The notes below the pieces were generated by a model. It saw only the letters and a program-made list of their open reading frames with translations. It did not search any database and was not told the DNA's origin. The translations under genes and the position numbers were made by a program. From Burkholderiales bacterium (GTDB lineage Bacteria > Pseudomonadota > Gammaproteobacteria > Burkholderiales > SG8-39), in assembly GCA_050246035.1 (NCBI GenBank), contig JBFWWT010000004.1, positions 1,568 to 65,567 on the forward strand: a stretch of DNA of 64,000 nucleotides, written 5' to 3'. Below, piece after piece: positions 47,531-57,660 of the stretch (position 1 is its first letter; the number at the start of each line of letters is the position of its first letter).

Positions 47531-48646
47531 CTACTTCTTCCGTGCCGCCGGCTTGGCCGGGCGCTCGGGGAAGTAGTAGTTCGGAATGAACTGCGACGGC
47601 GGGAACATGAAGCGCTTCGCCGGCACCACGAGCGACGCGTAGGCGCGCTGCGAGTCGAGCACCTTCTTGAAGAAGGGGTTCTTCGCGCTCTCCTCGGCGG
47701 CGATCTTGTCCCAGGTCTTCAGGAACTCGATCAGGATGGCGGGCGGGGTGCGCAGGATCTGCACGCCATGCTTTTCCTGCAGCTCCTTGAGGGCGTCGGC
47801 GTTCTGCCGCTGCCACTTCGCCCACCAGATGATGAAGGTCTCGCTGGCGATGGACTTCATCAGCTCCTGGTGCTCGGGCTTCATCGCGCGCCACACGTCG
47901 CCGTTGATCAGCACCTCGCCGATGGTGACGTTCTCGTGCGCGCCGGGCGTGTAGTGGTACTTCCACACGTTCTGGAAGCCCAGGCGCAGGTCCTCGACGC
48001 CGCCCACCCACTCGGCGCAGTCGATCACGCCGCGCTGCGCGGCGGGGATGATCTCGCCGCCCGGCATGTTGACCGTGGTCATGCCCATCTTCTGCCACAC
48101 CTCGGCCGCCATGCCGGTCTGCCGGCACTTCATGCCCCTGAAGTCGGCCAGGTTCTTGATCGGGCGCTTGAACCAGCCGAAGGCCTGCGGTCCGGAAGGC
48201 AGGATCGGAATCCACTGCACGTTGAGCTTGAGTTCCTTCTGGAAGAACTCGTTGCACAGCTCGATTCCGCCGCCGTGGTGCATCCAGCCGAGCGCATCGA
48301 TCATGTCCATGCCGAACGTGCCGCCCGGGCCGCCGGTGCAAAGGATCGCGGTCTTGTTCTTGCCGACCCAGTAGCCCGACCAGGCGTGCGCGCCATCGAG
48401 CACCTTCTTGTGCGTGGCGTCCAGCACCTCGAAGGCCGGCACGACCTGGCCGGCGGGCATCGCATCGATCTTCAGGGCACCGCCCGAAGTCTTGTGGATG
48501 CGATCGACGAAGTAGGTGAAGTTCTCGTAGAGCGTCAGGCTGGCAGGCCAGGTGGCCTGCATCTTCAGACTGGTTTGCGCCTGCGCGCCCACGCTGAATG
48601 CTGCCGCGGCCGCGATGACCGCAGCCGAACGAACGAACTGCCTCAT
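47531..48646 (-). CDS. TRAP transporter substrate-binding protein (DctP superfamily, TakP/COG4663-like)
   Basis: Signal peptide ...AAAAAFSVGAQAQ, 371 aa, preceded by the SD sequence AGGGAGGGGGAG. Confidence 0.9.
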   Translation of the reverse strand: MRQFVRSAAVIAAAAAFSVGAQAQTSLKMQATWPASLTLYENFTYFVDRIHKTSGGALKIDAMPAGQVVPAFEVLDATHKKVLDGAHAWSGYWVGKNKTAILCTGGPGGTFGMDMIDALGWMHHGGGIELCNEFFQKELKLNVQWIPILPSGPQAFGWFKRPIKNLADFRGMKCRQTGMAAEVWQKMGMTTVNMPGGEIIPAAQRGVIDCAEWVGGVEDLRLGFQNVWKYHYTPGAHENVTIGEVLINGDVWRAMKPEHQELMKSIASETFIIWWAKWQRQNADALKELQEKHGVQILRTPPAILIEFLKTWDKIAAEESAKNPFFKKVLDSQRAYASLVVPAKRFMFPPSQFIPNYYFPERPAKPAARKK

Positions 48647-54003: not shown

Positions 54004-54768
54004 TCAGCTCGGCGACGCGGTCTGCGCCGCCTTGATCTGGTCCGACGTCCCCTCGTAGACCCGCACCTGCACGCTGTCCACCTTGGCCTTCGGGTCCACG
54101 CGAAAGATGCCCTCGACGCGATGGAAGTGCCTGAATGCCAACCGGAAAGCTTCGGCGCTCGGGTCGCCGGGCTCAGGGAAAGTCATCATAGCATTTTTGC
54201 CCCCCTCGGACAGGGAGACCACCAGCTCCAGGCGGCCCTGGAAATCGCGATCGCGGCGGCTGCCGGGCGCGAGCAAGAGCAGCAGCCGATAGCGGTATTC
54301 CCCCGGCAGCACGTCGGGTACCACGCTGAAGCGGTTGATGCTGAGCGGGTTCGCGGCGCGCGATTCCGCCGACAGCATGCTCTCGAAGATCGCGAGCTCC
54401 TCGCGCAGCCGCGCGGCTTCCTGCTCGAGCCCGCGAATCTGCTGGGCGAGCTTGAGCTGCGCCGTGCGCTCTATCGCGAGCCGGCTGTCGGCCGCGTTGG
54501 CGACCGCGCGCAGCCGGTCCACCTCGGCGCGCGTCCCCTCCAGGTCGCGGCGCGTCCTGTCCAGCTCCTGCTCGACCTCGCTGCGGTCGAAGCCCGCGAA
54601 CCGGCGCCCGGCGTCGTACATCCAAGCCGCCAGGACCGCGGAGCAGGCCAGAACCACGATGAGGCCCGTCCAGCGCAGGTACCAGGCGACCTCGGAGCGC
54701 ACGGACACGCGCGGCGCGGCGATGCCGAAGCGCCGCCGCCACTTGGTCAGCCTGGTGCCGATGCGCAT
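54004..54768 (-). CDS. Hypothetical membrane-anchored coiled-coil protein
   Basis: One TM helix (WTGLIVVLACSAVLAAW) followed by a heptad-like segment. It is conserved upstream of the bactofilin and erpA genes. Confidence 0.65.
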   Translation of the reverse strand: MRIGTRLTKWRRRFGIAAPRVSVRSEVAWYLRWTGLIVVLACSAVLAAWMYDAGRRFAGFDRSEVEQELDRTRRDLEGTRAEVDRLRAVANAADSRLAIERTAQLKLAQQIRGLEQEAARLREELAIFESMLSAESRAANPLSINRFSVVPDVLPGEYRYRLLLLLAPGSRRDRDFQGRLELVVSLSEGGKNAMMTFPEPGDPSAEAFRLAFRHFHRVEGIFRVDPKAKVDSVQVRVYEGTSDQIKAAQTASPS

Positions 54769-55258: not shown

Positions 55259-55687
55259 TCAGATTTCCAGCGCCTTGGGCTGCTGCGCGGTATGCGGGTG
55301 GTTCGCCGCGCCGTAGACCTTCAGCTTCTTCAGCATGGCGTAGCCGAGGGGGCCCTTCGGCAGCATGCCCTTCACCGCCAGCTCCAGCGCGCGCTCGGGA
55401 TGGCGTGCCTGCAGCTTGGCGAAACTCGTCTCGCGCAGGCCGCCGGGATGACCCGTGTGCCGGTAATACATCTTGTCCTGCGCTTTCCTGCCCGTGACGC
55501 GGATCTTCGCCGCGTTCACCACGACCACGTAGTCGCCGGTGTCCACGTGCGGCGTGTACTCGGGTTTGTGCTTGCCGCGCAGGCGCGACGCGATCTGCGA
55601 GGCGAGCCGCCCGAGCACCTTGCCCTCGGCGTTCACCAGGTACCATGCATGCGTCACGTCCTGGGGTTTGGCTGCGAAAGTCTTCAT
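55259..55687 (-). CDS. rplM: 50S ribosomal protein L13
   Basis: [18 protein letters not shown]...HTGHPGG. Start at ATG 55687. Confidence 0.97.
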
Positions 55688-55715
55688 TGACCTGACTGCC
55701 GGAGAAAAGTCGCGA

Positions 55716-55744
55716 ATTTTAGGCGAGGGGCTCGCGAGCGTCAA
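55716..55744 (-). promoter_or_regulatory. Candidate sigma70 promoter of rplM-rpsI (TTGACG-17 nt-TAAAAT)
   Basis: Minus-strand hexamers at 55739-55744 and 55716-55721 with an exact 17-nt spacer. Confidence 0.6.
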
Positions 55745-55758
55745 ACCCTTGTTCGGAC

Positions 55759-55864
55759 AAAAAAAAAGCGCAACCCGAAGGTTGCGCTTGAATCCACCAA
55801 AGGAGGAGGGTGGAGTACTGCAAATCGCGCGGCGCAAGGAGGAGGAGGATATGCGCCTGCGACG
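55759..55864 (-). ncRNA. Candidate trans-acting sRNA (about 106 nt) with two CCUCCUCC anti-SD loops and an intrinsic terminator
   Basis: Minus strand, hairpin 1: GGCGCA[UAUCCUCCUCCUCCU]UGCGCC. Hairpin 2: UCCACC[CUCCUCCUUU]GGUGGA. Terminator: AAGCGCAACC[UUCG]GGUUGCGCUU plus a U tract. It has its own promoter upstream and sits in a local GC dip. Confidence 0.7.
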
Positions 55865-55870
55865 AGGCGA

Positions 55871-55899
55871 ATTATGCCCCTTTGAATGGTGCGTTGCAA
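55871..55899 (-). promoter_or_regulatory. Candidate sigma70 promoter of the sRNA (TTGCAA-17 nt-CATAAT)
   Basis: Minus-strand -35 at 55894-55899 and -10 at 55871-55876 with a 17-nt spacer. The predicted TSS is near 55864. Confidence 0.6.
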
Positions 55900-56019
55900 T
55901 AACAGAGGCTCTTTCATTTCGCAGGAGAGTGATAACTTCCTTTATCCCTCAATAACCTCAATGCCACGCGGCCCTTTGCATTGCACTGCACAACTATCTG
56001 ATTTGACTGGAGGAATTCG

Positions 56020-56448
56020 ATGGAATGCACGGTTCGCTGGTCCGGCTCGGGCATGTCGTTCATCGCGGAGACGGGCAGCAATCACATCCTGGCCATGGAT
56101 GGCGCGCCCGACGGCGGCGGTCGCAATCTCGCGCCGCGCCCGATGGAGACGGTGCTCGCGGGCACGGGCGGATGCACCGCCTACGACGTGATGGTGATCC
56201 TGAAGAAGAGCGGCCAGGAAGTGACCGGCTGCGAGGTGCGGCTCGAGGCCGATCGCGCGGAGACCGATCCCAAGGTGTTCACGCGCATCCATACGAAGTT
56301 CCTCGTGCGCGGGCGCAACCTCAAGCGCAACATCGTCGAGCACGCGGTCCGGCTCTCGCACGAAAAATACTGCTCGGCCACGGCGATGCTCGGAAAAACC
56401 GCCGACATCACGCGCGAGGTCGAGATCTTGGACGAAGCGCTCGGCTAG
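56020..56448 (+). CDS. OsmC family peroxiredoxin-like protein
   Basis: 142 aa with GGCTAYDV and EKYCSA, the two conserved cysteine contexts. SD sequence GGAGGA upstream. Confidence 0.85.
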
Positions 56449-57078: not shown

Positions 57079-57564
57079 TCAATTCTGCTCCGGCCCGGGC
57101 ATGTAGACCACCCGCCCGCCCTTTTCCCTCGCGATGCGCTCGGCGCGCTCGCAGGTCATCGGCGCGGGCTGGCGCTCCGCCGGAATGCGGTCGAGCCAGG
57201 GCCGGCAGTAGCCGGGCGGCGGCAGCTGCTCGGGCGGCACGTCCGGGAAATTGCTCGGGCCGTAGTCCACGCTGAGCGTGCGTCCGTCGCGGAAAGACTT
57301 CTGCGAAATCGCCTTCACGACGCGCCCGCCGTGCTTCTCCGCGAGCGCGTGCGCGCGCGGGCAGGGCATTTCCGGGGGCTGCCATTCGGGAGGGAGCTCC
57401 GCGTACCAGATGCGGCACTGGCCGAGCGGCGGGACCGACTGGGGCGGGACGTGGAATTCGAGCGGCGCGCCGGGCGCGCGCGCGCGCTCGTAGGCGACGG
57501 GGGCGGCGCAGCCGGCGAGCAGCGCGAGTGTCGCCAGCGGGAGACAGGCTCTGAAACGATGCAT
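57079..57564 (-). CDS. Hypothetical lipoprotein with two tandem Cys-containing repeats
   Basis: Lipobox LLAGC. The repeats are [39 protein letters not shown] and [39 protein letters not shown]. Confidence 0.7.
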
Positions 57565-57592: not shown

Positions 57593-57622
57593 AAAAAAAA
57601 GCCGCCCCGAGGGGCGGCTTTT
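57593..57622 (-). terminator. Rho-independent terminator of the porin gene
   Basis: On the minus strand: AAAAGCCGCCCC-UCG-GGGCGGCUUUU followed by a T8 tract, 39 nt after the porin stop. Confidence 0.85.
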
Positions 57623-57660
57623 GAAGTGCTTCTTGCTACCGGTGCTAGACCGGCCGCGCG

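Follow-up and report, generated by a model that had tools for sequence, protein, structure and literature searches.

What is encoded in the gap between rplM and the OsmC-family gene is the question raised by this locus. The 330 bp at 55677-56006 have the lowest GC content of any such stretch in the window, by which we mean the whole 64,000-nt piece of DNA that was analysed (51% versus 70% GC overall), in agreement with an earlier reading made from the letters only (the sequence-only reading), which had singled out the gap as the most AT-rich part. That reading had proposed a self-contained minus-strand sRNA with CU-rich loops complementary to Shine-Dalgarno (SD) sequences. Our analysis points to a trans-acting sRNA of the RF02278 family at 55864-55759 on the minus strand, with its own promoter and terminator and with CU loops directed against ribosome-binding sites (RBSs), likely the same ancestral gene as NcS27 and S17; we give this reading a probability of about 0.8. 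The genes around it are rpsI, rplM, the OsmC-family gene and coq7, in the order coq7-osmC-sRNA. The features of the locus are listed below.

55871-55899, minus strand: sigma-70-type promoter (promoter scan; same motif and spacing upstream of every homologue), with -35 TTGCAA at 55899-55894, a 17-nt spacer and -10 CATAAT at 55876-55871
55759-55864, minus strand: predicted primary sRNA transcript of ~100-106 nt, from CGUCGC to the U-run
55824-55863, minus strand: hairpin 1 (HP1; minimum-energy folds, covariation in 41 homologues)
55863-55859 with 55828-55824, minus strand: HP1 outer stem GUCGC/GCGAU
55857-55831, minus strand: GGCGCA[UAUCCUCCUCCUCCU]UGCGCC of HP1
55857-55852 with 55836-55831, minus strand: HP1 inner stem GGCGCA/UGCGCC
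55851-55837, minus strand: HP1 loop UAUCCUCCUCCUCCU, 15 nt, proposed extra anti-SD seed
55815-55823, minus strand: linker UUGCAGUAC, single-stranded, at the place of the canonical 'site 1' (alignments with homologues, S17S and NcS27)
55793-55814, minus strand: hairpin 2 (HP2) UCCACC[CUCCUCCUUU]GGUGGA, the conserved family seed hairpin, equivalent to S17S 'site 2'
55759-55789, minus strand: intrinsic terminator AAGCGCAACC-UUCG-GGUUGCGCUU followed by nine U (terminator scan)
55716-55744, minus strand: promoter of rplM-rpsI, TTGACG-17-TAAAAT (promoter scan), a neighbour outside the sRNA
56020-56448, plus strand: OsmC-family gene (NCBIfam NF008009), divergent from the sRNA, a conserved neighbour by which the locus is recognised

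The sRNA promoter, both hairpins and the 10-bp terminator with its UUCG loop and U9 tract had been described in the sequence-only reading, and all were found where it had placed them, by inspection of the letters and by promoter and terminator scans. The promoter scan returned 2 sites in 1.6 kb versus 0.1 expected and recovered the sRNA promoter; the rplM promoter named earlier was likewise found by the scan. Judged by these promoter and terminator signals, the locus is an independent transcription unit. Its probable transcription start was deduced from where the -10 element lies and from CGUCGC, the 5' end that the homologues share. The terminator stem of 10 bp contains 6 G-C pairs and, by analogy with S17 (PMC11722255), likely doubles as an Hfq-binding 3' module.

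Folding of the 114-nt RNA gave the structure described earlier at -44.6 kcal/mol (z = -5.86), and 0 of 200 dinucleotide shuffles were as stable. The outer stem GUCGC/GCGAU around HP1 adds to the earlier description. The predicted fold leaves both CU loops unpaired. The earlier statement that the CCUCCUCC loops are single-stranded therefore stands apart from one base, as the HP2 octamer CCUCCUCC begins at the last stem base and has 7 of its 8 nt in the loop. The CU-rich sequence displayed by the HP1 loop is CCUCCUCCUCC. The motif CCTCCTCC has 9 matches in 64 kb, 3 of them inside a 50-nt stretch of the sRNA.

Family assignment was addressed with Rfam and with covariance models. The cmscan check proposed earlier had a divided outcome: scanning the whole window at gathering thresholds reported no match, but with E-value thresholds the best match was RF02278 (Betaproteobacteria toxic sRNA; 47.2 bits, E = 1.5e-8, model positions 1-64, 55819-55760). 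This is the family that the sequence-only reading had guessed, and the guess is further backed by the slot relatives that pass the gathering score and by the matching NcS27 locus. The window sRNA lies 2.8 bits under the RF02278 gathering score of 50 bits, and thus below the family threshold, because model positions 1-7 (UGUCUCC) differ in the window. As the score falls just short, standard Rfam annotation overlooks the gene, although by descent it clearly belongs to the family. When RNAs in the osmC-rplM slot were tested on RF02278 (n=19), 18 scored 58.8-71.3 bits and the RNA of locus L001 scored 50.8. From a covariance model that excluded both the window and L001, the window sRNA received 67 bits (E = 1.6e-16), and with filters off it was the sole significant match in 64 kb. 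A second sRNA copy, sought across the 64 kb with the covariance model and filters off, was not found; the next-best model match at 57593-57652 was rejected as the terminator of the porin gene.

The traits of RF02278 were compared with the locus one by one. The CU-rich (CUCCUCC) loop hairpin followed by a terminator within a few nt is present (55814-55793 and 55789-55759). A single-stranded UGUCUCC immediately before the CU-loop hairpin is absent, with GCAGUAC in its place. Common descent is indicated by the same locus and by the threshold-passing RNAs found there, and a betaproteobacterial host by the nearest coq7, osmC, rplM and rpsI genes (70-92% identity), which are all on metagenome-assembled genomes of Burkholderiales or Betaproteobacteria. 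The model scores, the shared slot and 25 nt of identity with S17S together show that the window RNA is a homologue of the RF02278 family.

Other families were rejected by score. The link to the CcsR/cuckoo RNAs drawn in the sequence-only reading was not upheld (RF02791; CcsR1 14.1 bits versus a gathering score of 65.3). Membership in ar14 (RF02344; 30.1 bits versus 58.8) and in Neisseria NmsR/RcoF (RF02877; NmsRb, 29.4 bits versus 52) was rejected in the same way, and the sbrA and suhB families were also ruled out by score.

Occurrence was assessed in a coq7-anchored scan with one genome per species, which gave 80 loci (L001-L080; coq7 identity <=82%), every one of them in a metagenome-assembled genome of uncultured Burkholderiales or Betaproteobacteria. 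When searched with a covariance model covering HP2 and the terminator, the window had a single copy and 27 of the loci were positive, always on the coq7 strand. The sRNA was located between osmC and rplM in 26/26 positive loci having both genes; in the 27th (L002), whose contig stops short of rplM, it closely follows osmC. Adjacency of osmC and rplM was seen in 45 loci, of which 26 carry the sRNA (gaps of 116-450 bp) and 19 do not, the latter with gaps of 47-146 bp except for L032 with 281 bp (n=19). Upstream of every copy there is a TTGC-N3-GCA(G/C)CA motif and a CATAAT-like -10 at a 17-nt spacing.

Partial versions of the element were also seen. At L008:5314-5394 and L009:4643-4723 the promoter and the 5' UGUCUCCUCCACCC are kept and the seed hairpin is replaced by a CACCCGC...GCGGUG hairpin, and L030:6529-6582 is a decayed remnant without CU motif or promoter. 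Separately, an identical OsmC was present on contigs L081-L090 from independent samples (GCA_050248415.1, JGI 3300009873 and several SRA runs), so the same organism recurs across datasets. The rplM-osmC gap of these contigs differs from that of the window at 1-2 positions (55690, 55936), all outside the sRNA, and being near-identical to the window they are uninformative on selection.

Several observations concern the neighbouring genes. The outer TTGC..GCAA of the sRNA promoter motif, TTGC-N3-GCA(G/C)CA(A/T), is palindromic. A look-alike of this motif, TTGCATTGCACTGCACAA, is located at 55976-55993 on the plus strand, 27 nt upstream of the osmC start codon, similar TTGCAnnGCACAA-N6-TGATTT motifs occur in the osmC upstream regions of several relatives, and the promoter motif is still present in the osmC-rplM gap of 5 sRNA-less loci. 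The TTGC..GCAA motif may be a common operator of osmC and the sRNA. Between coq7 and the porin gene, a 161-aa ORF (57079-57564, minus strand) without a family or Pfam match is kept in 8 related loci at 64-81% identity. The region downstream of rpsI (54004-54768, minus strand) holds a DUF6776 gene and a bactofilin gene.

Conservation of the structure was evaluated in two sets of homologues. Among 27 sequences found via synteny, the terminator showed compensatory changes at 7/10 pairs, and HP2 was near-invariant with a single G-U change, giving invariance only and no covariation for HP2 in this set. In an alignment of 41 homologues, compensatory changes were present at 12/12 HP1 pairs and 6/9 terminator pairs; because this alignment was fitted to the three-hairpin model, the HP1 pair counts lean toward structure. 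Paired cells in the same fitted alignment reached 96.6%; shuffles gave 83.5%, and slid controls 32-44%. An unfitted alignment of close relatives showed weak covariation, with 2 pairs carrying compensatory changes, and HP1 was not alignable in a plain MAFFT alignment of 18 long forms. A 5' hairpin is found at the same place in every long-form homologue, with unrelated hairpin sequences. The earlier proposal to look for covariation in the stems was thus borne out for HP1 and the terminator but not for the invariant HP2. We take the structure to be under selection. Taken together, the fold, the homology and the covariation support the self-contained minus-strand sRNA with CU-rich anti-SD loops put forward in that reading.

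The main departure from the family lies in the seeds. The canonical RF02278 seed UGUCUCC ('site 1') is lost in the window, and the HP1 loop offers a second CU-rich stretch. The sequence-only reading had taken two CU loops plus a terminator as the design that defines the family; this proved incorrect, as the canonical design is a single-stranded CU stretch, one CU loop and a terminator. Scanning metagenomes for HP2 preceded by a CUCCUCC yielded 31 contigs. At least 14 distinct genome or metagenome sequences form a window-like subfamily with a CU loop on the 5' hairpin, sharing the promoter variant TTGCAC-TGCACCA, the 5' end CGUCGC, a two-tier HP1 and the invariant loop core UCCUCCUCCU. Locus L001 has the CU-loop hairpin of the window. 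Within this subfamily site 1 decays stepwise, from UGUCUCC through UGUCUUC, UGUCAUC, CAAUCUUC (L001) and GCAACACC (L121) to GCAGUAC in the window. Two further HP1 types also have CU loops, one of which holds the 13-mer UCCACCCUCCUCC; this matches the 5' half of HP2 exactly, which suggests that the seed was duplicated within the RNA. The subfamily with the UCCACCCUCCUCC loop comprises L054, L064, L093, L096, L102, L108, L110, L112, L113, L115 and L118.

The HP1 CU-rich loop is probably a second seed in the window lineage, and if so, the active species may be the three-hairpin transcript before any processing. A fuller version of this reading, which we put forward tentatively, is that the seed layout was rebuilt: site 1 was replaced by an HP1 loop copied from the HP2 seed, the unprocessed three-hairpin RNA is active, and the RBS set is of the GGAGGAGGAGG type and not of the GGAGGAGACA type of NcS27 and S17S. 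What is known of the relatives suggests another outcome, in which only a processed short form (HP2 plus terminator) is active, the 5' hairpin is a discarded leader and the seed likeness of the CU loop is incidental. S17 of B. pertussis, which adjoins coq7, is made as a 190-nt S17L that RNase E converts to the 67-nt Hfq-bound S17S (PMC11722255), with the cut just upstream of the HP2 equivalent and S17S as the abundant active form (PMC11722255). NcS27 also has a processing site and a processed short form as its abundant active species, and if the window RNA is processed in this way its HP1 loop would be cut off. The window linker AUUUGCAG is AU-rich and single-stranded, the 5' hairpins of most homologues are without CU loops, and L058 and L072 lack any 5' hairpin. 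Against this stands the conservation of the loop itself: its CU core is invariant in 14 window-like sequences while flanking stem positions vary, and CU-rich loops are found on three kinds of HP1 stem, one of them with the duplicate of the HP2 seed. In addition, the decay of site 1 is restricted to the lineage having the CU loop, which fits a CU loop that took over the role of site 1. We consider activity of the short form only to be doubtful for the window RNA; the conserved HP1 loop and the absence of site 1 speak for the full-length RNA having a role.

Two explanations without a trans-acting sRNA were weighed as well. The element lies immediately upstream of rplM on the same strand, with 72 nt between the end of the U-run and the rplM start, and this tandem arrangement is kept in many relatives, as is 'caacaagggTTTGAC' downstream of the sRNA, so that a cis-acting leader of the rplM-rpsI operon starting at 55864, with the terminator as a regulated attenuator, was considered. 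This is very unlikely, as rplM has its own conserved promoter past the terminator (its -35 begins 14 nt past the U-run), the element is absent from the 19 of 45 loci noted above despite the same osmC-rplM arrangement, and the homologues from elsewhere, namely S17 and the four copies dispersed in B. cenocepacia, act in trans as sRNAs in their own right. The terminator is moreover strong (10-bp stem, nine U), and folding revealed no anti-terminator alternative to it. Read-through of this terminator, raised in the sequence-only reading, might at most couple the sRNA to rplM. A small protein gene is more improbable still. ORFs of 58 or 34 codons on the minus strand and of 30 codons on the plus strand do exist, and an ORF of 32 codons in S17L was pointed out by the authors of the S17 work (PMC11722255), but the 58-codon ORF begins 53 nt before the predicted transcription start and the 34-codon ORF extends past the terminator. 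A conserved reading frame was sought in the homologues and none was found; frames, starts and lengths vary even among close relatives, single-base indels occur between the hairpins, and base pairing rather than codons tracks conservation. The earlier view that no protein gene explains the gap is in line with these results, including those for the 34-codon ORF, whose conservation it had wanted checked: its frame is not conserved and it is not contained in the transcript.

Under the preferred reading of a trans-acting RF02278-family sRNA, a mechanism can be proposed from the relatives. The exposed CU-rich loops would act as mimics of the 16S rRNA 3' end, Hfq would be bound at the U-rich 3' end of the sRNA, and the CU loops would pair with the GGAGG-type RBSs of a set of mRNAs, which would block translation initiation. 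The target set would be expected to resemble that of the relatives, mostly transporter and carbon-metabolism genes. As the seed validated in S17 (site 1) is absent in the window, targets and potency may differ. Within the 64 kb, the best predicted RBS candidate was that of a DctP gene (start 48646, region CUUAGGGAGGGGGAGUCAUG, duplex -24.6 kcal/mol), and this RBS was the top in-window predicted partner of both CU loops (-24.6 and -22.0 kcal/mol). Most of the remaining top duplexes were at internal start codons and were disregarded. Solute-binding proteins have been reported as targets of the relatives, and we regard the DctP gene as a lead only, based on the duplex model. The gene itself (47531-48646, minus strand) encodes a DctP-family TRAP solute-binding protein and has an unusually G-rich RBS, CUUAGGGAGGGGGAGUCAUG.

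The RF02278 family is among the most widely conserved sRNA families of the Betaproteobacteria. The mechanism is not new, and apart from the seed layout most of the proposed features are known in relatives. What goes beyond the published work is the osmC-adjacent slot common to the window, 26 related genomes and Burkholderia NcS27, the patchy presence in 26/45 loci of the same gene arrangement, and a subfamily whose 5' hairpin bears a second anti-SD loop as its classical seed is being lost. This window-like subfamily is a natural experiment on the movement of sRNA seeds and possible shifts in target sets.

Known systems resemble the window sRNA to different degrees. The alphaproteobacterial CcsR/cuckoo (RF02791) and ar14 (RF02344) RNAs also have hairpins with CCUCCUCCC-type loops followed by a terminator, but they belong to another bacterial class, and their hairpin units are repeated behind a gene; the resemblance is one of convergent design and serves as an analogy only. 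The Neisseria siblings NmsR/RcoF likewise have several hairpins and two CU-rich unpaired stretches complementary to the RBSs of metabolic genes (PMC5688073), but differ in forming tandem pairs. Their likeness is mechanistic, and common descent would be distant at best.

S17 is closer. Over the 'site 2' hairpin the window shares 25 identical nt with S17S, CUCCACCCUCCUCCUUUGGUGGAUU (S17S sequence from the supplement of the paper). The two RNAs also agree in having coq7 nearby, a terminator that ends in a long U-run and a sigma-70-type promoter (-35 TTGCA, spacer of 17 nt). S17S binds Hfq and represses BP2158 via its CU sites, with site 1 as the demonstrated seed (PMC11722255), and it was not clearly toxic (PMC11722255). 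Site 1, the UGUCUCC at the processed 5' end of S17S, is missing from the window. The 5' part of S17L is 123 nt long and holds a small ORF, whereas the window has a compact CU-loop hairpin, and control by BvgA is confined to Bordetella (S17).

The members of RF02278 in B. cenocepacia are the "double-hairpin" sRNAs ncS03, ncS05, ncS27 and ncS62, four dispersed copies. Burkholderia members appear, where Kimelman 2012 is cited (PMC4603805, PMC5688073), as short transcripts inhibiting E. coli growth when cloned. Targets of the relatives are mainly transporter and carbon-metabolism genes, and their expression goes up in starvation or stationary phase (PMC5688073, PMC10987360, PMC11722255). NcS27 (alias bdhR1) is 92 nt long with a three-hairpin fold; its overexpression slows growth, and its CU region is predicted to cover RBSs (PMC5688073). 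Like the window RNA (~100-106 nt), it consists of a 5' hairpin, a CU-loop hairpin UCCACC[CUCCUCCU..]GGUGGA and a terminator, is divergent from an OsmC-like gene (BCAL3349), and has CU-rich unpaired stretches complementary to RBSs (PMC5688073). Downstream, the window has rplM where B. cenocepacia has a gene for an exported protein. The 5'-hairpin loop of NcS27 is 3 nt without a CU motif, in contrast to the 15-nt CU loop of the window, and NcS27 keeps the single-stranded CUCCGAAUGUCUCC seed that the window lost. The window sRNA is therefore of an already known kind and is best described as a divergent RF02278 variant with a relocated second seed.
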